A stretch of DNA of 11,342 nucleotides from a virus. Taxonomy: Duplodnaviria; Heunggongvirae; Uroviricota; Caudoviricetes. Below are positions 1 through 11,342 of the stretch, piece after piece. Below the pieces are notes generated by a model, which worked only from the letters and a program-made list of their open reading frames with translations, was not told the DNA's origin and did not search any database. The translations under genes were made by a program, and so were the position numbers. Position 1 is the first letter of the stretch; every line of letters begins with the position of its first letter. The stretch covers positions 1 to 11,342 of the IMG/VR virus record IMGVR_UViG_2778261353_000007; one strand, given 5' to 3'.

Positions 1-255
1 CTGCTTTTCCTTGATGCTATAGGGGTGCTGAGACCGATAACGCATTTTGTAAACCATCCCTGTGAGAGCGAATATTCCGATATCTGGTTATTAATTTATG
101 ATTCTTGTTTTATGTGATCGTGGTAGCGTTAATTCCGCTCATATATCATTGTAAAATATGGGTTTTATATGAACTATAATGCTTTCGTGATAATACGCTG
201 CGTGTATTAGGCGGAAAAAACTGATCTGGGGGATGTAGAAACTCAAGGAAGTAGC

Positions 256-261
256 TATAAT
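256..261 (+). promoter_or_regulatory. Candidate -10 hexamer (TATAAT) of the selC promoter
   Basis: Exact TATAAT about 31 nt upstream of the mature tRNA 5' end; no convincing -35 seen. Position-based inference only. Confidence 0.3.
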
Positions 262-292
262 GCGCCCCGCCTCCATGTAGCAATCGAGGCGC

Positions 293-387
293 GGAAGATC
301 GTCGTCTCCGGTGAGGCGGCTGGACTTCAAATCCAGTTGGGGCCGCCAGCGGTCCCGGGCAGGTTCGACTCCTGTGATCTTCCGCCA
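293..387 (+). tRNA. selC: tRNA-Sec (selenocysteine, anticodon UCA)
   Basis: 95-nt sequence GGAAGATCGTCGTCTCCGGTGAGGCGGCTGGACTTCAAATCCAGTTGGGGCCGCCAGCGGTCCCGGGCAGGTTCGACTCCTGTGATCTTCCGCCA matches the E. coli selC tRNA as I recall it: long variable arm, anticodon TCA at 327-329, encoded 3' CCA. The minus-strand ORFs overlapping it are spurious. Confidence 0.93.
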
Positions 388-549
388 AACCTCATCCAGC
401 CAGTTCCGAGACACTCCATAAAATCCTTTATATTCAATACGATGAATAATCAGCTTGTCCGTAATAGTCCGAGAGCATCTCCCTGAATCCGCGAAAAATA
501 TGTATAGTAATGTGTATAGATTTTTTATAAGTAGTATTCAGTTATACAC

Positions 550-1728
550 ATGGCTCTAACCGATATACAGATCAAACGAGCAAAACCACAAGACAAGCCA
601 TACACATTGAACGATGGACAAGGTCTGTCATTGCTTATCAATCCCGATGGCTCGAAAGGCTGGCGTTTCCGTTTCCGATTTGCAGGAAAAGCGCGGTTAA
701 TGTCATTTGGCAGCTACGATTTAGTAAGCCTCGCAGAAGCACGTGAGAAGCGTGATATCGCCCGTAAGCAGGTTGCTAATGGCATTGACCCGGTAGAGGA
801 ACGCAAAGCTTTAAGACTCGCCCAAAAGCTATCAACAGAAAATTCTTTCGAAGCAATATGTCGAGAATGGCATACCAACAAAGCTGACCGCTGGACTGTG
901 GCCTATCGAGAAGAAATTATTAAGACATTCGAGCAGGATGTCTTCCCGTTCATTGGTAAACGTCCTATCAGTGAAATCAAACCATTAGAACTGCTTGAAG
1001 TATTGCGACGAATAGAGAAACGAGGAGCACTAGAGAAGACCAGAAAAGTGCGCCAAAGATGCGGTGAGGTCTTTCGTTATGCAATCATAACTGGCCGAGC
1101 TGAATACAATCCAGCACCTGATTTAGCTATCGCTCTGGCCGTTCCTAAGCAAAAACACCACCCATTTTTATCTGCCGAAGAGTTGCCTTATTTTATTCAA
1201 GATCTTGAAGCGTATACCGGAAGCATCATCACTAAAAATGCGACAAAGATAGTCATGTTAACTGGCGTAAGAACTCAGGAAATGCGCTTTGCCACGTGGG
1301 ATGAAGTTGACCTTGAGAAAGGAATATGGGAGATTCCAGCTGAAAGGATGAAAATGCGCAGGCCTCATATTGTACCTCTATCTACTCAGGTGATTGCCCT
1401 TTTTAAACAGCTCAAGCCTATTAGCGGCCATTATCCCTACATTTTTATTGGAAGAAATAATCGTAGTAAACCGATCTCTAAAGAAAGTGTATCACAGGTT
1501 ATTGAATTACTAGGCTACAAAGGTCGCGCTACAGGTCACGGATTTAGACATACTATGTCAACCATTTTGCACGAAAAGGGATTTGACAGTGTATGGATTG
1601 AAATGCAATTAGCTCACTTAGATAAAAATACTATTCGAGGTACATATAACCATGCACAATATTTAGAGAAGAGAAAAGATATGATGCAATGGTATGCGGA
1701 CTTTTTATACAAATCATTGGAGCGGTAA
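550..1728 (+). CDS. int: Tyrosine site-specific recombinase, P4-type integrase
   Basis: 392-aa ORF directly downstream of a tRNA gene. N-terminus MALTDIQIKRAKPQDKPYTLNDGQGL is typical of P4-family integrase arm-binding domains. C-terminal catalytic signature is present: Arg in LTGVRTQE, HGFRHT box and Tyr in RGTYNHAQY. No obvious Shine-Dalgarno before the ATG. Confidence 0.9.
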   Translation: MALTDIQIKRAKPQDKPYTLNDGQGLSLLINPDGSKGWRFRFRFAGKARLMSFGSYDLVSLAEAREKRDIARKQVANGIDPVEERKALRLAQKLSTENSFEAICREWHTNKADRWTVAYREEIIKTFEQDVFPFIGKRPISEIKPLELLEVLRRIEKRGALEKTRKVRQRCGEVFRYAIITGRAEYNPAPDLAIALAVPKQKHHPFLSAEELPYFIQDLEAYTGSIITKNATKIVMLTGVRTQEMRFATWDEVDLEKGIWEIPAERMKMRRPHIVPLSTQVIALFKQLKPISGHYPYIFIGRNNRSKPISKESVSQVIELLGYKGRATGHGFRHTMSTILHEKGFDSVWIEMQLAHLDKNTIRGTYNHAQYLEKRKDMMQWYADFLYKSLER

Positions 1729-1737
1729 ACGCTCCAA
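1717..1737. terminator. Perfect 8-bp stem / 5-nt loop hairpin between convergent int and membrane-protein genes (possible bidirectional terminator)
   Basis: TTGGAGCG-GTAAA-CGCTCCAA spans the int stop codon; no clear U-tract on either strand, so terminator function is uncertain. Confidence 0.3.
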
Positions 1738-1744
1738 TACATAA

Positions 1745-2386
1745 TTAATATATGGATGCTATTACCATTAAGACTTTAAAGAAAAACATGACGACAATTA
1801 ACCAGATAATTAAATACCCCCAAATACTACTGATATGATAGTTAATTCTACCTTTTAGCATCCTCCAAAAGCTAAAATTTTCAGGCGTATGGGAAATATA
1901 ATATCTGCTCTTTACTATTTTATGATATTCATAATCAACAGGGCTATGGTTGAAAGTGCATGTTGATTTTATTTTTTCATACTCATCGCGAAGATTATCT
2001 ATATTTTTATAATCTTCTTCAGTCATTTCATTTTTTAAGCTATTTTTGAATAGAGAAAGTTTCCTTTCATACTCATTAAGTAACTCAGCATTTCTAAAGA
2101 GAGCTTCAGATTTAGCTCCTGATGCAACTCCCCACTCAATAAGACTAATTATAATTAATAGCATACTTAAGATAATAGAAAATGCGGTTATTAATATATT
2201 GAGTTTAGGATTTATATCATTAATCCAAAAATATTGCATTAATGATAATATAATACTGGAAAGGCCAATTAAAGCGAGACTAATAGTTGAAAAGATCTCT
2301 CTGACCTTTAATCGACGGGATGAATTATATCTTGCACACGATGTTTCCCATGCAGCTTTACTTAGGCTATCCAAAAAATCTTTCAT
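1745..2386 (-). CDS. Hypothetical membrane protein with three predicted TM segments; candidate effector partner of the adjacent reverse transcriptase
   Basis: ORF track gives 1745..2482 (245 aa). I prefer the internal start MKDFLDSL at 2386 (213 aa) because GGAG lies 6 nt upstream (2393-2396) and the longer N-terminus runs into the GC-rich spacer. Hydrophobic stretches IFSTISLALIGLSSIILSLMQYF, LNILITAFSIILSMLLIIISLI and C-terminal ISSIWGYLIIWLIVVMFFFKVLMVIASIY; charged, probably helical region between TM2 and TM3. AT-rich like the RT gene. No family recognised. Confidence 0.65.
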   Translation of the reverse strand: MKDFLDSLSKAAWETSCARYNSSRRLKVREIFSTISLALIGLSSIILSLMQYFWINDINPKLNILITAFSIILSMLLIIISLIEWGVASGAKSEALFRNAELLNEYERKLSLFKNSLKNEMTEEDYKNIDNLRDEYEKIKSTCTFNHSPVDYEYHKIVKSRYYISHTPENFSFWRMLKGRINYHISSIWGYLIIWLIVVMFFFKVLMVIASIY

Positions 2387-2580
2387 TATAAACTCCATGA
2401 ATAGTATAAAGTGACGCAACGCCGGAGATATCAGTCCAATCCTCTTCACCAGCAGTTTCCCCCGATGAAGGTTTACTACCATTTTAGGTCAGGAGCACTT
2501 CTGCCCATCACGGCATTTCCGCATGGGGTACGGCACCTGCAAGGCAAGTGCCGTCGGCGTTGGTCAAGCTCAATATATCA

Positions 2581-3990
2581 TTATTTAGGATATACTTCAC
2601 CTTCATCTGCATGCATGCTAGCTAGATTTTTAGCTTTATATCTCTCATAACGCTCTTCAACCTGTTCTTTAGTTAACCTCTCACCTTCAGCAATCCTTCC
2701 GCGCCGGTGCAAGAATTCAGTTTTTTGTTTAACAGTTTTAATCTGGTCGTAATCTCGTATATAACCTCTATGTGGGCTATATTTCATTTCATAATAAGCA
2801 CGTGTTACCTTTTTCAATCCTTCAGGTGCACAATTATCAAAATCATCCAAGCGTTTAAACATTTCTCTTATTATAAAATCTATTTTATGCAGAAGAGAGT
2901 GGTCGGTAATATTTGAATAATAAGCCACCCATCCATATCTTTTTTTCTCACTAATAGCCCCTGTTAACTTATCATTTAACTCTTCCAGAAAAACATCTTT
3001 AAGATCATCAACGGTTAAATGTGTATACTTCTTTAAACGTTTATTTTTATTGTGAAGATAGTCACTAAACCTAGATGCGATTGATTTTATAAATGATTCT
3101 ACAGTCGAATCTCGCACTGTTATAACATTTGCATTAAAAACATATCCCAAAAAGCTAAAAGACTCATTAAGAAAACCTAAACGTGTCTTAGATGATGTTG
3201 GCGGATGAGTGTTTAATCCCCTATATTTAAGCCTACGCCGTAGTGAATGATAAGCTGAATTTACCTCGTCATAATTTCCATAAATTAGCACATCATCAAC
3301 ATATCTATAGTAAGCTACATCAAACTTTAGCATTTTATCATCAACACTTTGCAGATAAATTGCAGCTAAAATATTAGATATTGACAACCCTTGAGGAACT
3401 CCCTTTTCATTATCAAAAAAAAACTTCCTCATTTTTTTATTAACACTATCACTTGTTGTTGGTGTTAAAAGAGAACGAACTATGAGGTCCAACGCTCTTT
3501 TACAATGCACTCTTTTTGATAGAATCTTTTTAAGTCGATGTTTGTTTATATTGTCATAGAAACCTTCAATATCACAACTACAAACATAAATATCTTCAGG
3601 GGGCATATCTTTTAAATCATCCGAGATATTTCTAATATAAGTTGAAGCAATACTCTTAGGTACACAATCAGGGAAAATCTCACAAAGAAAAACATTGAGC
3701 TGTTTTAATACAATGCGATCTCTAATTGTTGGTATAGAAATTACCCTAGGACTTTTTCCTCGCCCTTTACTTTTTAATTTTTCTAAGTAAGGAGTAAATC
3801 TAAATGAACCGTCAAGACATTTTTCCGAAACTTTCTTTAATTCCTTTCTGGCTCTACTTGAATATTGCATGCCATTGATTCTGTCAATGCCTTTTGCTGC
3901 CGACTTACTAAATTTATCAGAATACACATCAAATAAAGATTTTGGGGAGAAGAGTTTTTTAAATAACGTTTCTTGTGCTCGTTCATCCAT
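2581..3990 (-). CDS. Reverse transcriptase (RNA-directed DNA polymerase), unclassified, probably defence-associated
   Basis: 469-aa ORF with the RT motif series: AAKGIDRINGMQY (motif 0/1-like), RVISIPTIRDRIVLKQL (motif 2), CDIEGFYDNI (motif A, catalytic Asp), GVPQGLSISNILAAIYL (motif B'), YRYVDDVLIYG (motif C, YxDD), FLGYVF (primer grip). About 180-aa charged C-terminal extension. SD-like AAGGTG 5 nt before the ATG. Very AT-rich relative to the P4 backbone. Confidence 0.9.
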   Translation of the reverse strand: MDERAQETLFKKLFSPKSLFDVYSDKFSKSAAKGIDRINGMQYSSRARKELKKVSEKCLDGSFRFTPYLEKLKSKGRGKSPRVISIPTIRDRIVLKQLNVFLCEIFPDCVPKSIASTYIRNISDDLKDMPPEDIYVCSCDIEGFYDNINKHRLKKILSKRVHCKRALDLIVRSLLTPTTSDSVNKKMRKFFFDNEKGVPQGLSISNILAAIYLQSVDDKMLKFDVAYYRYVDDVLIYGNYDEVNSAYHSLRRRLKYRGLNTHPPTSSKTRLGFLNESFSFLGYVFNANVITVRDSTVESFIKSIASRFSDYLHNKNKRLKKYTHLTVDDLKDVFLEELNDKLTGAISEKKRYGWVAYYSNITDHSLLHKIDFIIREMFKRLDDFDNCAPEGLKKVTRAYYEMKYSPHRGYIRDYDQIKTVKQKTEFLHRRGRIAEGERLTKEQVEERYERYKAKNLASMHADEGEVYPK

Positions 3991-4129
3991 TGCATCACCT
4001 TATATTACGTCACGACTATTCCGTCTGACCACTTAATATCATGAATTCATTGCGTTCTTATAGCAAAATTTAATAAAAACTGCATTAACCTTCACTATTG
4101 ATTGGTCGCATTAAATTCTTATGCGCGCA

Positions 4130-4148
4130 GTGCTTTCCCCGCCTCGCC
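4130..4148 (-). other. cos site: 19-nt P2/P4 cohesive-end sequence
   Basis: Minus strand reads GGCGAGGCGGGGAAAGCAC, which matches the P2/P4 cohesive-end sequence as I recall it. It lies downstream of psu, as in P4, and is flanked by GC-rich hairpins (4147-4167 and 4197-4218). Confidence 0.55.
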
Positions 4149-4250
4149 CGCCCGCTTTGCGGGGCGGTTTTAATGCAGTTGCACTGACACGCTCAGACCG
4201 CGCCGGGAATGGCGCGGTTTGCAGAAAATGAGGCAGGAAAACGCATGCAA

Positions 4251-4282
4251 AGCCATGCACCTTATCGATGCATGGCTTTTTT
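4251..4282. terminator. Rho-independent terminator-like hairpin downstream of psu (possibly bidirectional)
   Basis: 9-bp stem AGCCATGCA / TGCATGGCT with a 9-nt loop, followed by a T-run on the plus strand; A-rich tract on the other side. Sits between the psu stop (4313) and cos. Confidence 0.45.
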
Positions 4283-4312
4283 CAGTAAAAACGGGCGGAT
4301 TTTCGGGGGGTT

Positions 4313-4885
4313 TTACACAGACTGATGTGATGCCAGTTGCGCACTTTTACGCGAAAAAATCATATTCTGCGCAGGAGTGAATTTTTCACGGCTGTCATCC
4401 ACCGAAGCCGCGTCAGGCCTGAATCCGATGGTCGTTAAAATGTCGCTATCCTGTGCGGAATAATTAATTTTTTCCCCCTTCGCAAGCCAGGACAGAAGGG
4501 CTTCACGCAGGGCATCTGTGGCACGCTGTATGGCACAGTTTCGGGCAATGGCCGTCAGCTCACTGTAGCCCATCAGCTCCGGTGCCAGTGCGGCCGCCAG
4601 TGCTGTGCCGTGCTGCTGCATAAAATCATTCAGCCGGTCGCGGATGCTGATGTGCTGAACGGCTTCATGCGAACGAATATAACGACCGGCAGCCTGATTC
4701 ACCTGCCATTTTCTGACTTCGATAATATTGCGTAATTCGTCCAGGCGACTGACGTTTCTGCCTTCCCCGGACAGAAGCCGCAGATATTCCTGTTCGGCCG
4801 CAGCCAGCTCATTTTTGCGTTGCAGCCATGCTGCTTTGTTATTCTGACAGGTGTCAAAGGCCTGCTGTAAGGCTGTGCTTTCCAT
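4313..4885 (-). CDS. psu: Polarity suppression protein Psu (capsid decoration / Rho antagonist)
   Basis: 190-aa ORF, the size I recall for P4 Psu; last gene of a minus-strand sid-delta-psu operon, followed by terminator and cos exactly as in P4. Confidence 0.88.
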   Translation of the reverse strand: MESTALQQAFDTCQNNKAAWLQRKNELAAAEQEYLRLLSGEGRNVSRLDELRNIIEVRKWQVNQAAGRYIRSHEAVQHISIRDRLNDFMQQHGTALAAALAPELMGYSELTAIARNCAIQRATDALREALLSWLAKGEKINYSAQDSDILTTIGFRPDAASVDDSREKFTPAQNMIFSRKSAQLASHQSV

Positions 4886-4958
4886 CGTTATCTCTTTCTC
4901 ATCATGCTGAAGAATAAAAATACGGTGTGCGGCGACGGCCGGGGTTAACCGGCAGCCC

Positions 4959-5459
4959 TCATTCCAGACGCAGCGAATATGATTGTGTTTTTAACCGTAC
5001 TGGCGGCAGTTCCTGTTTTTCATGCAGGCGTTCTGCCAGTTCGTCCGGCGTGACCGGGCGGACAATGAAGCGGTTGATGGTCTGAAGCGTTTTAAACACC
5101 AGACCACAGCCCGGATCCGTGCACACATAAAAACGTTCGGTGACTTCCTGAGACAGACGCCGCGATGTTCTTGACAGTGCAAGGCCGTTACATCTCCGAC
5201 AACAATATCCGGTAACAAGCATTCTTTTCGGGCGTTTCATACTGCCGGAGGCAGAAGTCAGTGAATCGCGGTATCTCTGTTTGCCTGAAATGTATTCCAT
5301 TCCTGAATCTTTACTGTCAGAGAAAAAGCTTTCACTCGCTTCAAATGTCGCAGAGCAATAAATATTCCGGCACTGTGCAATCATTATCTTGGTGCCATCG
5401 TCCATGAAATGTGCGCGACGAGTGTGAGCAACATGTCCACACGACGGGCAGTAAATCAT
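4959..5459 (-). CDS. delta: Late gene transcriptional activator Delta (tandem Ogr-type zinc finger)
   Basis: 166-aa ORF with two Cys-rich zinc-finger units (CPSCGH...CRNIYC and CCRRCNG...CTDPGCG), matching a duplicated Ogr-like fold. Start overlaps the sid stop (ATGA), indicating translational coupling. Confidence 0.88.
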   Translation of the reverse strand: MIYCPSCGHVAHTRRAHFMDDGTKIMIAQCRNIYCSATFEASESFFSDSKDSGMEYISGKQRYRDSLTSASGSMKRPKRMLVTGYCCRRCNGLALSRTSRRLSQEVTERFYVCTDPGCGLVFKTLQTINRFIVRPVTPDELAERLHEKQELPPVRLKTQSYSLRLE

Positions 5460-6190
5460 GACAGCAGTCCTCTGGCCTTAAGCTCTGCACCCTGCTGGTC
5501 TATTTTGTCCTGCCACACCTTGCGCTGTGCCGGTGTGCCTGCCACCTCATAATCCATGTGCGGGAGTGTTGCCGCTGACAGTCCGGTCAGCCGGAGAACC
5601 GGCTCGCCGGTGAGGCTGATTTGCATCTGTTTAATTTTCTGTTCCAGCGATGATTTCACCTGCTGCATGACAGCCTTTTCCGGTGCGACGTAGCCCTGAT
5701 GGCCGGTGGTGTTGGCGAGCGGATTTTCCTGTACCAGAATGCTCAGATGCATTGCCCGGACAAGCGCCTCACAGGTTTCATTCAGGGCGTGTTCCAGCTC
5801 ATGCTCTGCATACAGACTCAGAAGGTGATGATGTGCCTTCCGGTAGGCGGTGGCCGTGCTGTCACACGCCCCTTTCAGGCGTTCGCGTTCAAAATTCAGC
5901 ACCACGGCCAGATTGTCATATTCCTGTACCAGCTCCCGGCGTGCCACGCGCTCAATGTGGCGCTGTTTCAGCTCGTCGCTCAGGACACCACCGGCTGCAC
6001 GAAAGGCCGTGCGCCAGTCGTCAGCGTCGTTTCCGTCGGCCTGCGCCAGCGCATTTTTTTCCTGCTCTGCCCGTTCAATGGCCGTGACGGTCTCATCCAT
6101 CAGACGGGCGTTCTCAAGATGGGCGGCTCTGGCCTTTTCCAGTTGTGCCAGCGCGGATTGCAGATATTCAGGGATGGTGTTGTCAGACAT
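5456..6190 (-). CDS. sid: Capsid size determination protein Sid (external scaffold)
   Basis: 244-aa ORF, the size I recall for P4 Sid; first gene of the late operon; GAGGAG Shine-Dalgarno upstream of the ATG; helical, Ala/Glu/Leu-rich composition. Confidence 0.9.
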   Translation of the reverse strand: MSDNTIPEYLQSALAQLEKARAAHLENARLMDETVTAIERAEQEKNALAQADGNDADDWRTAFRAAGGVLSDELKQRHIERVARRELVQEYDNLAVVLNFERERLKGACDSTATAYRKAHHHLLSLYAEHELEHALNETCEALVRAMHLSILVQENPLANTTGHQGYVAPEKAVMQQVKSSLEQKIKQMQISLTGEPVLRLTGLSAATLPHMDYEVAGTPAQRKVWQDKIDQQGAELKARGLLS

Positions 6191-6261
6191 TTTCGGCTCC
6201 TCGTCACTTCAGGTTGAGAAAATTGTGACGTACACCGGACAACAACACGACGCATTGCAGA

Positions 6262-6279
6262 TGTGCCAGCCCTGACACA
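6262..6279 (-). promoter_or_regulatory. TGT-N12-ACA dyad, candidate Delta/Ogr activator site of the sid late promoter (Psid)
   Basis: TGTGCCAGCCCTGACACA lies 72-89 bp upstream of the sid ATG, consistent with an activator site centred near -55 of a P2/P4-type late promoter. A second TGT-N12-ACA at 6224-6241 lies closer to the gene. Confidence 0.4.
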
Positions 6280-6358
6280 GGAGACTCATCCTCACACCGG
6301 CAAGCCAGGAAAAGGTCGCAGGAAAAACCGGCTTACTGTTTGTTTTTTTATATTTTAC

Positions 6359-6462
6359 TGTTCACCTCTGTTCACCATAAGAAAAAAGATAAGTAATACA
6401 GTAAGTTAAATGGTGAACAATCGCAGTAATGACTGTTCACCGTCTGTTCACCACTGTTCACC
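6359..6462. repeat. Iteron cluster: six copies of octamer TGTTCACC (five direct, one inverted), ori-like alpha-binding sites
   Basis: Octamers at 6359, 6369, 6434, 6445, 6455 (plus strand) and 6412-6419 (GGTGAACA, inverted). TGTTCACC is the alpha-protein binding iteron of P4 ori/crr as I recall; it lies about 4.8 kb from a second cluster after alpha. Confidence 0.6.
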
Positions 6463-6566
6463 CGTTGATGGGCTTTTTGTGCTGTTTATTACTGTTTGTT
6501 TTTATTAATTCGCCGGGAATGAATAAGAAAAAACGATTTGTATTTCACTATAAAAATTACGAATTG

Positions 6567-6596
6567 CTTTAAGTGGCTTTAAATGACTTTAAGTGG
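6567..6596. repeat. Three tandem 10-bp repeats CTTTAAGTGG / CTTTAAATGA / CTTTAAGTGG
   Basis: Direct tandem repeats with 10-bp (one helical turn) periodicity in the control region upstream of vis; possible protein-binding array. Confidence 0.35.
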
Positions 6597-6621
6597 AGAT
6601 GAACAAAAAACACACAAGCAT

Positions 6622-6639
6622 TGTAAGGCTGCCGGAACA
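6622..6639 (+). promoter_or_regulatory. TGT-N12-ACA dyad, candidate Delta/Ogr site of the rightward late promoter (PLL-like) driving vis
   Basis: TGTAAGGCTGCCGGAACA lies about 100-120 bp upstream of the vis ATG; same dyad class as the Psid site, in divergent orientation. Confidence 0.3.
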
Positions 6640-6741
6640 AATCCCCCCTGTTGCGTCTGCTGAAAATATTCACAAAATAAAGCGCTACCCGAAGCCGGAC
6701 GGACTTATCCGGTGCTGTATGGACATTAACGAGGTAGCCCG

Positions 6742-7008
6742 ATGCAAGCTGTTTTTTCTTCCCCGTCTCCCGCCCCTGTGACGCCACTGATGCCGCTGCC
6801 GGACATCACGCAGGAGCGTTTTTTACGTCTGCCGGAAGTGATGCACCTGTGCGGCCTGTCACGCTCGACCATCTATGAACTCATCCGTAAGGGGGAATTT
6901 CCGCCGCAGGTGAGTCTTGGCGGTAAAAATGTGGCCTGGCTGCACTCTGAAGTCACCGCATGGATGGCCGGCCGCATTGCCGGACGCAAACGGGGGTATG
7001 ACGCATGA
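6742..7008 (+). CDS. vis: AlpA/Vis-family small DNA-binding regulator (excisionase-like)
   Basis: 88-aa ORF with the AlpA-type helix-turn-helix core [27 protein letters not shown] and a conserved Trp-containing tail; GAGGT Shine-Dalgarno 7 nt upstream. Same size and position as P4 orf88/vis as I recall. Confidence 0.75.
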
Positions 7009-7604
7009 TGATGCCCGCTCTGCAAAAAGTCCCTTTTTCTGGCTTGCCTTTTTCCGGCATTTGCGGATATAGTTTTTCCGCTGTCGCAAAATCGGCAGCC
7101 GGGCGTGGAAACCCGAGCAATCTAACGGCGACATATGACGCGCCATGCGTCTTTTTTTGTGTCGCAATCAACGCCACAGAGCGCCAGATTATGGTGTGGT
7201 GTGTGGTCAGTCGAGCAGATGGCACTCCGTGCATCCTGCCCGCGTCCGCTCATTATGCCGCAGAGTCAATGGTAGCTCAGGCGGGGCAGCCTCCGGGCTG
7301 GCCGGTATCCGTTAGAGCCGGTATTTCCACCCCCGTCTGGGCTATCGCCATCGAGCGTGGAAACTCCGGCGATAGCGTAACCTGCTATCTAACGGAGGCT
7401 GCCATCATGGCTACAACCCTTACCCCTTCACACCCTGAATTTGTCTTTGTGTTTGCGGCTGTCCGTCGCGCAGACCGTCATCCCCGTATCTGCATGCTTC
7501 GCACCGTCGCCGGTGATGAACGCAGTGCCCGCCGTTCCCTTGTCCGTGACTATGTGCTCTCCCTTGCTGCCCGTCTGCCGGTGGTGGAGGTGTCCCGTGC
7601 GTAA
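7005..7604 (+). CDS. Questionable 199-codon ORF overlapping the early promoter and immunity RNA region
   Basis: ATG overlaps the vis stop (ATGA), but the frame runs straight through seqA, the candidate CI RNA and seqC, and has Ala/Arg/Pro-rich low-complexity composition. Possibly only an N-terminal kil-like portion is real, or none of it. Confidence 0.2.
7044..7073 (+). promoter_or_regulatory. Candidate early promoter (PLE-like): TTGCCT, 18-bp spacer, TATAGT
   Basis: -35-like hexamer at 7044-7049 and -10-like hexamer at 7068-7073, about 30 bp upstream of seqA. Match by eye only. Confidence 0.3.
7103..7129 (+). promoter_or_regulatory. seqA-like target of the immunity RNA
   Basis: GCGTGGAAACCCGAGCAATCTAACGGC; its ends (GTGGAAA ... 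ATCTAACGG) are complementary to CCGTTAGA ... TTTCCAC at 7309-7330. A near-repeat lies at 7355-7397. Confidence 0.4.
7271..7346 (+). ncRNA. Candidate CI-like immunity RNA containing seqB
   Basis: Contains seqB-like CCGTTAGAGCCGGTATTTCCAC (7309-7330), complementary to seqA and seqC. GGTAGC (7271-7276) can pair with GCTATC (7341-7346) as a closing helix, with internal hairpin CAGCC-TCCG-GGCTG. Boundaries approximate. Confidence 0.35.
7355..7397 (+). promoter_or_regulatory. seqC-like second target of the immunity RNA
   Basis: GCGTGGAAACTCCGGCGATAGCGTAACCTGCTATCTAACGGAG repeats the seqA end motifs (GTGGAAAC ... ATCTAACGG) downstream of seqB. Confidence 0.4.
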
Positions 7605-7884
7605 TAAAAAAGCCCCTCAGACCGTCTCAGCGCGTCATGACGCCCGTGAACACCTCAGCATTGAGGCTTACCATAAGCTCAACCGCGCCAGCGCCGTATC
7701 CCAGTTTGTTGGGGGTGATTTGATTCACCGTGAACTCTCCGGCCTGCATCAGCTCTACATTCCGCATATTTTCAGCTACCTGAATGAAGATATTGATTTT
7801 GTGCTGAATGAACTGAAAGCCAAAGGCCTGTGCCGCGATTTTCTCGCCCAGCAGAAAGACCGGGGAGACAGGACGCATGTTTGA
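7597..7884 (+). CDS. Small protein (95 aa), possible epsilon-like antirepressor
   Basis: In-frame GTG at 7597 is preceded by GGAGG at 6 nt; the ORF-track ATG at 7441 would lie inside the immunity RNA region. Stop overlaps the next start (ATGTTTGA). The epsilon assignment is by position and size only. Confidence 0.45.
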
Positions 7885-8332
7885 TTTTCCCCAGCCCGGT
7901 GAGATTTACCGTTCTGCCGGTTTTCCCGATGTGGCCGTGGTCGGCATTCTGGAAGACGGTATTCCGTGGGAAATGCCGTACCGCTGCCCGGACATTGTCT
8001 GGAACCCGTACCGCCGTAAATTCAGTATCCTTGTGCGTATCCTCGCTGACGGGCGCACCACAGACATCCCGCTGGGGCGTTTTCTGCGGGAATTTACCTG
8101 TGACCGTCCTGACCTGTTTAAACGCAGCCCCGTAAACCGGCATGCGGTACTGAAAGAAATGGCCGGAGACCCGGAATTACAGAAATGGCGGGAGAAATAT
8201 CTGGATATTTACCCGCAGGCCCCTGTTCCGGTCAGCCGGGCGACACCGGTGGCGCGGGAATGGCGGGAAATCCCCCGCACGGAGCCTGACCCGGAAATCA
8301 CACCGGATAACAGTTACCGCAATTATCTGTAA
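7877..8332 (+). CDS. Hypothetical protein, 151 aa (P4 orf151-like)
   Basis: ORF translationally coupled to the preceding gene, same strand as alpha, backbone-like GC content. Function unknown. Confidence 0.6.
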   Translation: MFDFPQPGEIYRSAGFPDVAVVGILEDGIPWEMPYRCPDIVWNPYRRKFSILVRILADGRTTDIPLGRFLREFTCDRPDLFKRSPVNRHAVLKEMAGDPELQKWREKYLDIYPQAPVPVSRATPVAREWREIPRTEPDPEITPDNSYRNYL

Positions 8333-8467
8333 TTAAAAAACGACACCCGAAAAATTAAATGTGCGTATTCGCGCAGGGATACGCACGTCTTCAGGAGACG
8401 CAGATATGCCTTATCAGTTAATGCAACCGGCACGGAATGCAGTCATCTGTCACAGGGAGGAAAGCAA

Positions 8468-8788
8468 ATGAAAACACCCTTACCGCCCGTCTTACGCGCA
8501 GCCCTTTACCGTCGTGCTGTCGCCTGTGCCTGGCTGACCGTGTGCGAACGTCAGCACCGCTACCCGCATCTCACCCTTGAATCACTGGAGGCGGCCATCG
8601 CCGCTGAGCTGGAAGGCTTTTATCTGCGCCAGCACGGTGAGGAAAAAGGGCGTCAGATAGCCTGTGCCCTGCTGGAAGATTTAATGGAATCCGGCCCCCT
8701 GAAGGCCGCGCCGTCGCTGTCCTTTCTCGGGCTGGTTGTGATGGATGAACTCTGTGCCCGTCACATAAAAGCGCCGGTACTGCACTGA
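8468..8788 (+). CDS. Hypothetical protein, 106 aa (P4 orf106-like)
   Basis: Strong GGGAGG Shine-Dalgarno upstream of the ATG; sits immediately upstream of alpha. Function unknown. Confidence 0.6.
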
Positions 8789-8802
8789 AGGAGAACAACA
8801 CC

Positions 8803-11145
8803 ATGAAAATGAACGTAACCGCCACCGTCAGCCATGCGCTCGGCCACTGGCCGCGTATTCTCCCGGCGCTGGGGATTCAGGTGCTGAAAAACCGTCATCA
8901 GCCCTGTCCGGTCTGTGGCGGGAGTGACCGCTTCCGTTTTGATGACAGGGAGGGGCGCGGCACCTGGTACTGCAATCAGTGTGGTGCCGGTGACGGCCTG
9001 AAACTGGTTGAAAAGGTGTTTGGTGTTTCCCCGTCCGATGCGGCCGCAAAGGTGGCTGCCGTGACCGGCAGCCTGCCCCCGGCTGACCCGGCAGTGACGG
9101 CTGCCGCCGGTGCTGAAACAGACGCTGCCCGGAAGAACGCAGCCGCACTGGCACAAACCCTGATGGCGAAAACCCGTCCCGGAACCGGTAACGCCTACCT
9201 GACCCGCAAGGGCTTTCCCGACCGGGAATGCCGGATGCTGACCGGCACACACAGAGCCGGTGGCGTGAGCTGGCGCGCCGGTGACCTTGTGGTGCCACTG
9301 TATGACGACAGCGGCGAACTGGTTAACCTTCAGTTAATCAGTGCTGACGGCCGTAAGCGCACCCTGAAAGGCGGACAGGTCAGGGGCACCTGTCACACCC
9401 TTGAAGGACAGAATCAGGCCGGAAAACGTCTGTGGATAGCGGAGGGATACGCGACCGCACTTACCGTGCATCACCTGACCGGTGAAACGGTGATGGTGGC
9501 GCTTTCTTCCGTGAACCTCCTTTCTCTGGCCAGCCTTGCCCGGCAGAAGCATCCGGCCTGTCAGATTGTCCTTGCCGCAGACCGTGACCTCAGCGGTGAC
9601 GGCCAGAAAAAAGCCGCCGCAGCCGCAGATGCGTGTGAAGGTGTTGTTGCCCTGCCGCCGGTCTTCGGTGACTGGAATGATGCCTTCACGCAGTACGGCG
9701 GGGAAGCCACCCGTAAGGCCATTTATGATGCCATCCGGCCACCGACTGAAAGCCCGTTCGACACCATGAGCGAAGCGGAGTTTTCCGCCATGAGTACCAG
9801 CGAAAAGGCCATGCGTATCTATGAGCATTACGGCGAGGCGCTCGCGGTCGATGCCAACGGCCAGCTTCTGTCCCGCTATGAAAATGGTGTCTGGAAGGTG
9901 CTGCCGCCACAGGACTTTGCCCGGGATGTGGCCGGGCTGTTTCAGCGTCTGCGCGCGCCGTTCTCCTCCGGGAAGGTGGCCTCCGTGGTGGACACCCTGA
10001 AGCTGATTATTCCGCAGCAGGAAGCCCCCTCCCGCCGCCTGATTGGCTTTCGTAACGGCGTGCTCGACACGCAGAACGGCACGTTCCACCCGCACAGTCC
10101 GTCACACTGGATGCGCACCCTGTGCGATGTGGATTTCACCCCGCCGGTGGAAGGGGAAACGCTGGAAAACCACGCCCCCGCGTTCTGGCGCTGGCTTGAC
10201 CGTGCCGCCGGTGGCCGTGCGGAAAAACGCGACGTGATTCTGGCCGCACTGTTTATGGTGCTGGCAAACCGCTACGACTGGCAGCTCTTTCTGGAGGTGA
10301 CCGGTCCCGGCGGCAGCGGCAAAAGTATCATGGCCGAAATCGCCACCCTGCTGGCCGGGGAGGATAACGCCACGTCGGCCACCATCGAGACGCTGGAATC
10401 CCCGCGTGAACGTGCCGCGTTAACTGGCTTCTCACTGATACGCCTGCCGGACCAGGAAAAATGGAGCGGCGACGGTGCCGGACTCAAGGCCATCACTGGC
10501 GGCGATGCGGTGTCCGTGGACCCGAAATACCGGGATGCGTACTCCACGCATATCCCGGCGGTGATTCTGGCCGTGAACAATAACCCGATGCGCTTCACCG
10601 ACCGCAGCGGCGGCGTGTCACGCCGGCGGGTGATTATTCACTTCCCGGAACAGATAGCCCCGCAGGAGCGCGACCCGCAGCTTAAGGACAAAATCACCCG
10701 CGAGCTGGCGGTCATTGTGCGTCACCTGATGCAGAAGTTCAGCGACCCGATGCTCGCCCGGTCACTGCTTCAGTCCCAGCAGAACTCAGACGAGGCACTG
10801 AACATCAAACGGGATGCCGACCCGACGTTTGATTTTATCGGCTATCTGGAAACCCTGCCGCAGACCAGCGGCATGTATATGGGGAACGCCAGTATCATCC
10901 CGCGTAATTACCGTAAATACCTCTATCACGCCTATCTGGCCTACATGGAGGCAAACGGCTACCGGAATGTACTCAGTCTGAAAATGTTCGGGCTGGGGCT
11001 GCCGGTGATGCTGAAGGAATACGGACTGAATTACGAGAAGCGCCATACCAAACAGGGGATACAGACCAACCTGACGCTGAAAGAGGAAAGCTACGGCGAC
11101 TGGCTGCCAAAATGTGACGACCCTGCGACAACCCGACCCTCATGA
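8803..11145 (+). CDS. alpha: Replication protein alpha: primase (zinc finger + TOPRIM) fused to helicase, with C-terminal origin-binding region
   Basis: 780-aa ORF. N-terminal zinc motif CPVCGGSDRFRFDD...YCNQCG; TOPRIM-like region around WIAEGYATALTV and AADRDLSGDGQKKA; Walker A GPGGSGKS. AGGAG Shine-Dalgarno upstream. Size and architecture match P4 alpha. Confidence 0.92.
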   Translation: MKMNVTATVSHALGHWPRILPALGIQVLKNRHQPCPVCGGSDRFRFDDREGRGTWYCNQCGAGDGLKLVEKVFGVSPSDAAAKVAAVTGSLPPADPAVTAAAGAETDAARKNAAALAQTLMAKTRPGTGNAYLTRKGFPDRECRMLTGTHRAGGVSWRAGDLVVPLYDDSGELVNLQLISADGRKRTLKGGQVRGTCHTLEGQNQAGKRLWIAEGYATALTVHHLTGETVMVALSSVNLLSLASLARQKHPACQIVLAADRDLSGDGQKKAAAAADACEGVVALPPVFGDWNDAFTQYGGEATRKAIYDAIRPPTESPFDTMSEAEFSAMSTSEKAMRIYEHYGEALAVDANGQLLSRYENGVWKVLPPQDFARDVAGLFQRLRAPFSSGKVASVVDTLKLIIPQQEAPSRRLIGFRNGVLDTQNGTFHPHSPSHWMRTLCDVDFTPPVEGETLENHAPAFWRWLDRAAGGRAEKRDVILAALFMVLANRYDWQLFLEVTGPGGSGKSIMAEIATLLAGEDNATSATIETLESPRERAALTGFSLIRLPDQEKWSGDGAGLKAITGGDAVSVDPKYRDAYSTHIPAVILAVNNNPMRFTDRSGGVSRRRVIIHFPEQIAPQERDPQLKDKITRELAVIVRHLMQKFSDPMLARSLLQSQQNSDEALNIKRDADPTFDFIGYLETLPQTSGMYMGNASIIPRNYRKYLYHAYLAYMEANGYRNVLSLKMFGLGLPVMLKEYGLNYEKRHTKQGIQTNLTLKEESYGDWLPKCDDPATTRPS

Positions 11146-11152
11146 CTCACCT

Positions 11153-11176
11153 GACCGGCATCTGCCGGTCTTTTTT
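11153..11176 (+). terminator. Rho-independent terminator of alpha
   Basis: GACCGG-CATCTG-CCGGTC hairpin immediately followed by TTTTTT, 8 nt after the alpha stop codon. Confidence 0.7.
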
Positions 11177-11194
11177 ATCCCTGAAATCCCCGAA

Positions 11195-11285
11195 GGTGAA
11201 CAATCCACTGTTCACCCTTCACCGTATATTCACCCGTTATCACACTGAAATTAAAAGAGAAAAACGAAAGGTGAACAGTGTGAAC
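11195..11285. repeat. Second iteron cluster (crr-like, cis replication region), probably truncated by the window end
   Basis: GGTGAACA at 11195 and 11270, TGTTCACC at 11209, and degenerate copies (CTTCACC, ATTCACC, GTGAACA) immediately downstream of alpha. Confidence 0.5.
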
Positions 11286-11342
11286 AATCAAATCAAAAAA
11301 AACTTTTTTTTCTCCCTGTGTGATTTCAGTACGGGGGATTAA

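Follow-up and report, generated by a model that had tools for sequence, protein, structure and literature searches.

A spacer RNA between the reverse transcriptase and SLATT genes of a P4-like satellite and its probable role in a DRT10 defence system

What does the 194-bp spacer between two AT-rich genes of a P4-like satellite encode? The DNA in question, IMG/VR record IMGVR_UViG_2778261353_000007 (Caudoviricetes; positions 1 to 11,342), was analysed over its full 11,342 nucleotides and is referred to here as the window. Between int and psu it carries an AT-rich minus-strand cassette consisting of a 469-aa reverse transcriptase (RT), the spacer, and a membrane protein of the SLATT type. On that strand, the spacer is bounded by the RT stop codon TAA (2583-2581) and the SLATT start codon ATG (2386-2384). 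Its guanine-cytosine (GC) fraction is 0.495 (2387-2580) versus 0.296 in the SLATT gene and 0.327 in the RT gene, a contrast that an initial annotation of the bare sequence had estimated by eye. The contrast recurs in nine of ten relatives (0.47-0.56 in the RNA region, 0.31-0.36 in the genes), and in the tenth and most distant, L057, gene GC is 0.40-0.44.

The spacer very probably encodes, on the minus strand, the non-coding RNA (ncRNA) component of a DRT10 anti-phage system, in which it joins a UG17 RT and a SLATT_5 protein in the int-psu hotspot. The initial annotation had proposed a structured minus-strand ncRNA serving the adjacent RT, and the combination of UG17 with SLATT_5, a 60-bit covariance model match, and covariation all support that proposal. 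DRT10, its ncRNA (described in 2025-2026), telomerase-like repeat synthesis, and the H120 locus in the P4 hotspot are already known from the literature. The biological addition made here is slight. Of mild interest are the exact repeat unit used by this clade and the reason for its frozen template loop.

The RNA and its protein partners

DRT10 systems are tripartite, comprising an ncRNA, a SLATT protein, and an RT, and the structured ~137-nt ncRNA lies upstream of SLATT and is bound by the RT (Tang et al., PMC12632851). The evidence for this RNA comes from RNA immunoprecipitation sequencing (RIP-seq), Northern blot, mutagenesis, and in vitro reconstitution (PMC12632851; 10.64898/2026.04.29.721553). 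Synthesis is primed on the C-terminus of the RT itself and, through telomerase-like template resetting, yields tandem-repeat single-stranded DNA of kilobase length; three E. coli DRT10 systems protect against phage (PMC12632851). UG17 comprises three subtypes, with ncRNAs predicted upstream of SLATT in all of them, and RT-SLATT with a ~200-bp spacer is one of its two gene architectures (Sanchez-Nieto et al., 10.64898/2026.04.29.721553). UG17 systems are controlled by the host ExoI/SbcB (10.64898/2026.04.29.721553).

The locus contains the components of a DRT10 system: a UG17 RT with a YVDD active site, an adjacent SLATT_5 protein, and a homologous ncRNA upstream of SLATT. The RT matches the PADLOC profile RT_UG17 over positions 3-428 of 429 (465 bits, E = 4.4e-140). 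Its YVDD occupies residues 230-233, and Y230, V231, D232, and D233 are invariant in 21 homologues. SLATT is matched by Pfam PF18160 (107.7 bits against a cut-off of 29.5, E = 6e-31), NCBIfam SLATT_5 (130.5 bits against a cut-off of 60), and PADLOC RTasSLATT (E = 1e-35). In an identical RefSeq locus the RT is WP_000344414.1, which is listed for E. coli H120 in Table S1 of Tang et al. (PMC12632851), and the window's SLATT sequence is the one given in that table. The RT protein is also listed among UG17 loci (Tang et al., PMC12632851), and the H120 RT-SLATT locus has been assigned to subtype UG17-B (Sanchez-Nieto et al., 10.64898/2026.04.29.721553).

The RNA itself was identified with a covariance model, R1, built without the window from five distinct published "Eco2-like" ncRNAs (Ralstonia, Pseudomonas, and others) in the accessible part of Table S2 of Tang et al. 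The R1 structure is an RNAalifold consensus from which a spurious hairpin in the template loop was removed; the published per-sequence structure strings, whose brackets were unbalanced once deletion marks had been taken out, were left unused. With filters off, R1 matches the minus strand from 2573 to 2409 over its full length (model positions 1-178) at 60.2 bits (E = 1.6e-15). The second-best match anywhere in the window scores 10 bits. The blocks (G)GAAGUGCUCC and AAACCUUC...GAAGAGGAU are common to the window RNA and the Eco2-like ncRNAs in the accessible published set. RefSeq annotates no feature in the spacer, and a scan of the whole window with Rfam 15 at E <= 1 finds no family there, only tRNA-Sec, C4, isrK, and c4-a1b1 elsewhere.

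Table S1 of Tang et al. (PMC12632851) records "ncRNA associated" as FALSE in the E. coli H120 row. Within the accessible parts of these tables (rows UG17_locus_1580, 1101, 1428, and 1565), the flag is also FALSE for loci whose ncRNAs appear in Table S2, and therefore says nothing about the absence of an ncRNA.

Retrons, DRT2, and DRT9 are likewise defence systems built from an RT and an ncRNA, the published DRT10 and DRT9 ncRNA structures are alike (PMC12632851), and the RT has weak matches to the Drt2, Drt9, and retron profiles. Even so, there is very little chance that the spacer RNA works as a retron msr-msd, as a DRT2 rolling-circle template for a de novo gene, or as a DRT9 poly-U template. 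Against 465 bits for UG17, the RT scores 64 bits each for Drt2 and Drt9. The Rfam scan offers no family for the spacer, and the template loop lacks a U-run and has short A-B-A' repeats of the kind characteristic of DRT10. A retron, defined by a retron-clade RT with msr-msd upstream, was considered separately and rejected: the best-matching retron profile gives the RT 35 bits (cut-off 235), the RNA is encoded on the downstream side of the RT whereas retron RNA lies upstream, and the spacer has no Rfam match.

Fold and covariation of the spacer RNA

The DRT10 assignment draws further support from the fold of the RNA. The minus-strand spacer folds at -72.4 kcal/mol (z = -4.3), and none of 200 dinucleotide shuffles is as stable; the 165-nt core reaches z = -4.74. 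The plus strand folds more weakly (z = -2.75). Both inverted repeats picked out in the initial annotation are present and belong to larger helices. The hairpin CGGCAC/GTGCCG (2531-2536/2548-2553) grows to an 11-bp stem that pairs 2554-2544 with 2540-2530. The 8-bp long-range repeat, CAACGCCG at 2417-2424 with CGGCGTTG at 2555-2562, becomes a helix of 12 pairs with a single bulge (2566-2555 with 2424-2412). As had been conceded, the 8-bp repeat alone is insignificant, since one occurs in 180 of 1000 spacer shuffles. Guided by a compositional anomaly and two inverted repeats, a reader of raw sequence can thus spot a probable RT-partner RNA.

Of 5426 complete E. coli genomes, 5 carry the spacer, at an identity of at least 99.5%. 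These copies are too alike for covariation analysis, and genome, metagenome, and viral contigs were used instead. An R1 search places the same RNA on the strand of the RT, 15-25 nt beyond its stop codon, at 29 loci in named genomes; with metagenome and viral contigs included, 86 of 100 sources have it. At 25 of the named-genome loci (L002-L037) the RNA is followed after 15-30 nt by the start of a SLATT homologue.

Covariation across these homologous loci, named as a check in the initial annotation, is strong. In a 30-sequence alignment (A3), 90.9% of cells are paired; sliding the partners by 1-3 columns lowers this to 40-48%. Compensatory changes on both sides are seen at 41 of 47 pairs, and no shuffle reaches the observed values. 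Because A3 was fitted to the model, an independent check was made on twelve spacers of the enterobacterial clade aligned by MAFFT alone (A4), onto which the window's own centroid fold was projected. Here 91.6% of cells are paired versus 36-58% when slid, with compensatory change at 15 pairs.

The individual helices behave accordingly in both alignments. The basal stem (helix 1) is 92.6% paired over the 30 loci, and 14 of its 14 pairs have changed on both sides. Stem-loop 1 (helix 2) exceeds the family consensus in length; its pairing in A3 is 97%, and compensatory changes occur within the clade. Compensation is seen at 5 of 6 pairs of stem-loop 2 in A3 and at 6 of 9 in A4. In A4, pairing of stem-loop 5 is 100%, and two of its pairs have changed in a compensatory way. 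The GAAGUGCUCC motif (family consensus CGGAAGUGCUCC) is nearly invariant over the 30 loci and is also found in the accessible published Eco2-like sequences.

Sequence conservation is likewise concentrated in the RNA. Within the enterobacterial clade, nucleotide identity is 81-97% for the ncRNA, 66-90% for the RT gene, and 69-88% for the SLATT gene (the ncRNA value for L057, 0.03, reflects an alignment failure and was left out). The ncRNA has a GC content of 47-56%, the genes on either side one of 31-36%. Since the RNA is both conserved and GC-rich between AT-rich genes, the compositional anomaly reads as the footprint of selection on RNA structure.

Could the conserved region instead be protein-coding? 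Two open reading frames (ORFs) do exist there, a SLATT N-terminal extension (ATG at 2482, 245 aa) and a 79-aa plus-strand ORF (2411-2650), and some metagenome callers run SLATT into the ncRNA. In two close metagenomic relatives, gene callers over-extend SLATT to 233-234 aa. SLATT homology, by both Pfam and NCBIfam, starts only at residue 33-40 of the 245-aa ORF, and the start in the identical RefSeq locus is 2386; RefSeq and most callers use this conserved ATG, which gives proteins of 210-213 aa. Substitutions are paired across helices, and insertions and deletions of 1, 2, and 5 nt fit an RNA rather than a reading frame. The probability that the spacer is coding is negligible, and the ORF from 2482 is, to judge from these patterns, an artefact that overruns the 3' half of the ncRNA (2387-2482).

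A regulatory role has more to be said for it. The initial annotation named a promoter and 5' leader of the membrane-protein gene as the alternative that would undo an RT-associated ncRNA; that alternative is compatible with such an RNA, which ends 22 nt before the SLATT ATG. That distance leaves room for the GGAG ribosome-binding site only, the tight spacing is conserved, and a conserved U-run follows the basal stem. Given the gap of 15-30 nt between RNA and SLATT, SLATT is probably translated from a transcript that has the ncRNA as its leader. It is very unlikely, however, that the spacer is regulatory only, serving as RT terminator, SLATT promoter, and structured 5' leader with no part in RT function. 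A five-helix structure that covaries over Enterobacteria, Betaproteobacteria, and pseudomonads exceeds what a terminator or leader needs, and the RNA matches a model from a class defined by RT immunoprecipitation. In related systems, neither cDNA synthesis nor defence survives deletion or scrambling of the homologous RNA (PMC12632851).

Transcription of the DRT10 ncRNA could start from an extended -10 element over the RT stop codon. At 2580-2572 the sequence reads TGaTATATT; TGnTA is invariant, and TGnTAT(A/C)TT occurs in 9 of 12 clade spacers. This candidate rests on inspection by eye and on conservation, and is not among the calls of the promoter scan. For RT-SLATT loci, putative promoters are described ahead of each of the two genes (Sanchez-Nieto et al., 10.64898/2026.04.29.721553). 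In the window, an AT-rich stretch with ATGATATTAAG ahead of the RT start is similar to the TGATATATT block ahead of the ncRNA. From approximately 2573/2566 to 2409, the predicted RNA is about 155-165 nt long.

Template loop and proposed mechanism

In the folded RNA, the 12-bp basal stem would enclose stem-loops 1, 2, and 5 and the single-stranded GAAGUGCUCC, with the template loop between stem-loop 5 and the basal 3' strand. The loop lies 3' of a stable stem-loop and carries an A-B-A' repeat, as in DRT10, and contains GACUGAU, as in the Eco2-like class. The initial annotation had suggested that the spacer might be an RT template. This holds for the template loop with its repeats, of which only a short part of the 19 nt is expected to be copied, and not for the remainder of the RNA, which is expected to be scaffold.

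By analogy with characterized DRT10 systems, the following sequence of events may be proposed. The RT would bind the window ncRNA and prime DNA synthesis on its own C-terminus, probably at Tyr467. This residue, third from the C-terminus, is invariant in the 21 homologues and is the putative priming residue; protein priming occurs at Tyr444 in Eco1 and at Ser456 in Eco3 (PMC12632851), and the clade's conserved C-terminal Tyr resembles Eco1, unlike Eco3. A few loop nucleotides would be copied as far as the boundary set by stem-loop 5, a putative template boundary element according to the stem-loop 5 mutagenesis of PMC12632851. The nascent cDNA would then slip back to the short downstream repeat A' and be extended anew, as in telomerase, and the product would be a long single-stranded tandem-repeat DNA. 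Held in check by host ExoI (SbcB), this repeat DNA might control the SLATT membrane effector, which would abort infection.

Which repeat unit is copied can be approached through the loop sequences. An A-B-A' repeat of at least 3 nt with a long (8-11) or short (3-5) period is present in 52 of 55 distinct loops compared with 31% of shuffled loops. The long GAU-type register (period 8-11) occurs in 40 of the 55 and the short UGA-type in 36. The two are near independence, with three loops that have neither where about five are expected. Because both registers are common and nearly independent, comparison of loops picks neither. For the long register speaks L017:2052-2223, an AT-rich homologue (ncRNA GC 0.40) with the template loop AGUAAAUAACCUUAAUAUUUU, in which UAA replaces both conserved GAU triplets (or AAUA...AAUA, period 9); this is the only case in which the two putative alignment sites clearly covary. 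The start of this register, 2 nt past stem-loop 5, also fits the geometry of the characterized systems. Against the long register, several loci break it and retain the short one. A 9-nt unit of GAUUGGACU plus GAU is ranked first, without confidence, ahead of candidate units of 4-5 nt.

The 3' end of the RNA is strikingly constant. Its last 40-46 nt (window 2412-2457) are identical in 21 loci (L002, L048-L056, L058, L069-L078, L144, L146) whose RTs are 63-100% identical in amino acid sequence. The invariant stretch comprises the 3' strand of stem-loop 5, the template loop, and the 3' strand of the basal stem, while the other stems drift with compensation. This invariance contrasts with published DRT10 mutagenesis, in which the template loop is largely tolerant of change. 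One rather unlikely explanation is that the enterobacterial P4-borne clade uses a trimmed DRT10 ncRNA and that selection acts on the very sequence of its repeat product. If so, the cDNA repeat, for example (AGTCCAATC)n, could be recognized in a sequence-specific manner by SLATT or by a host or phage single-stranded DNA-binding protein. The stretch might alternatively double as a translation control element for SLATT.

Several points weigh against assigning the spacer RNA to DRT10. The clade RNA departs from the family consensus, scoring 60 bits versus 100-170 for beta- and gamma-proteobacterial members. It lacks two small central helices (model helices 5 and 6) and has a longer stem-loop 1, which accounts for the lower score. 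For this exact sequence, RT binding, protein priming, repeat synthesis, and defence are ascribed by analogy with the literature. A simple promoter/terminator scan calls neither a consensus sigma-70 promoter nor a terminator on the minus strand of the spacer, so that, with no promoter called, the 5' end of the RNA (~2573/2566) is approximate. Finally, Eco2DRT10 is stated to have an A and an A' of just 2 nt (Tang et al., PMC12632851). Should Eco2DRT10 be the window locus, this would argue against the 3-nt GAU and favour GA-CU-GA or UG-GAC-UG.

Satellite setting and relation to known systems

The window contains a P4-like satellite sitting at tRNA-Sec (selC), an integration site indicated by the P4-type integrase next to the tRNA gene (Table 1). 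In E. coli VG12A2, yicJ-yicI lie on the far side of tRNA-Sec. A Delta-like zinc-finger gene, part of the P4-like satellite gene set, is present, and the P4-type immunity RNA region (7067-7352) is consistent with an intact P4-like satellite. The cassette lies between psu and int, as cargo of the P4-like defence hotspot does. The H120 RT-SLATT pair is placed likewise between psu and int of a P4-like satellite (Rousset et al. 2022); there RT and SLATT make sbcB essential in strain H120, and it was this system that brought Rousset et al. to the defence hotspot of P4.

SLATT stops at 1745 and int at 1728, the two genes being convergent; the terminator-like hairpin between them extends over the int stop codon and probably serves both genes as a bidirectional terminator. 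On the other side of the cassette, the psu-RT intergenic region (3991-4312, minus strand) is richer in GC (0.47) than the cassette and contains three GC-rich hairpins (~4281-4250, 4217-4196, and 4167-4148), the last of which scored as terminator-like on the plus strand. The DRT10 ncRNA model has no match in this region. Among relatives of the cassette, L057:275-1324 has a TIR_2-domain protein immediately upstream of the RT, and L051:1-1048 adjoins the SymE toxin and RhuM.

Table 1. Features of the window, by position
Feature	Position	Strand	Basis or remark
tRNA-Sec (selC)	293-387	+	adjoins P4-type integrase directly
P4-type integrase	550-1728	+	profile match
Terminator-like hairpin, 10 bp, T/A runs on both sides	1715-1739		terminator scan
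SLATT_5 two-transmembrane effector, 213 aa, ATG at 2386	1745-2386	-	Pfam, NCBIfam, PADLOC
GGAG ribosome-binding site of SLATT gene	2393-2396	-	6 nt ahead of ATG
DRT10 ncRNA, Eco2-like / UG17-B class	2409-2573	-	full-length R1 match; fold z = -4.74
Basal stem P1, 3' strand CGGCGUUGCGUCA, includes CAACGCCG	2412-2424	-	fold and alignment
Template loop AGGAUUGGACUGAUAUCUC, 19 nt, identical in 21 loci	2425-2443	-	aligns to published "predicted template loop", e.g. AGGAUCUGACUGAUCUCUC
Leading A-B-A' candidate GAU-UGGACU-GAU, 9-nt unit	2430-2441	-	predicted cDNA repeat 5'-AGTCCAATC-3'
Alternative A-B-A' GA-CU-GA, 4-nt unit	2436-2431	-	
Alternative A-B-A' UG-GAC-UG, 5-nt unit	2438-2432	-	
Alternative A-B-A' GGA-UU-GGA, 5-nt unit	2442-2435	-	
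Stem-loop 5, CUUCAUCGGGGG / CUGCUGGUGAAG, 11-bp stem	2444-2470	-	immediately 5' of template loop
Weak 3-bp hairpin	2489-2478	-	fold
Conserved motif GAAGUGCUCC, mostly single-stranded	2492-2501	-	family consensus CGGAAGUGCUCC
Stem-loop 2, 9 bp with bulge	2504-2527	-	fold
Stem-loop 1, 11 bp, loop CUU (hairpin of the initial annotation)	2530-2554	-	fold
Basal stem P1, 5' strand UGACCAACGCCG, includes CGGCGTTG	2555-2566	-	fold and alignment
AT-rich block TAAATAATGATATATT over RT stop codon	2572-2590	-	putative -10 / extended -10 for ncRNA
UG17-family (DRT10) RT, 469 aa	2581-3990	-	PADLOC RT_UG17, Pfam RVT_1
Psu	4313-4885		Pfam, E = 1e-88
c4-a1b1	7067-7119	+	Rfam
isrK	7080-7157	+	Rfam
C4 antisense RNA	7265-7352	+	Rfam
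alpha primase ORF	8803-11145		

Among known RNAs, the window RNA is closest in layout to the Eco2-like DRT10 ncRNAs (Tang et al. 2025, PMC12632851). It shares with them the order RT, ~200-bp ncRNA spacer, SLATT, as well as the basal stem, stem-loops 1, 2, and 5, the 19-nt template loop, and a full-length model match. It differs in that its clade lacks the two small central helices, has a longer stem-loop 1, and keeps the loop invariant over 21 loci. Like the Eco3DRT10 ncRNA (137 nt) and the UG17-A ncRNA of Escherichia sp. E3659 (143 nt), it is encoded upstream of SLATT and has a central stem with stem-loops, a template loop past the last stem-loop, and A-B-A' repeats. In those two systems the repeats are CAAU-GAUUC-CAAU and ACU-UAUU-ACU, and synthesis is protein-primed (PMC12632851; 10.64898/2026.04.29.721553). 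Unlike in the window, their gene order is SLATT-RT with overlapping genes, and the primary sequences differ; published UG17 covariance models work within a subtype only (10.64898/2026.04.29.721553).

Further afield, the DRT9 (UG28) ncRNA is also an RT-bound scaffold of similar shape with a template loop and protein-primed synthesis (PMC12632851). There, however, a conserved poly-U template yields poly-dA, whereas the window loop has no such run and the RT match is the 64 bits noted above. Telomerase RNA offers an analogy drawn in PMC12632851, with a short template and alignment segment beside a structured template-boundary element and processive repeat addition. The likeness is one of mechanism, with no RNA sequence homology claimed, and DRT10 differs in being protein-primed, bacterial, and defensive. 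Like retron msr-msd, the window RNA is a structured ncRNA beside a defence RT and is closed by a long-range inverted repeat. Its RT belongs to another clade, the RNA lies downstream of the RT, and the expected product is a tandem repeat rather than branched multicopy single-stranded DNA (msDNA).

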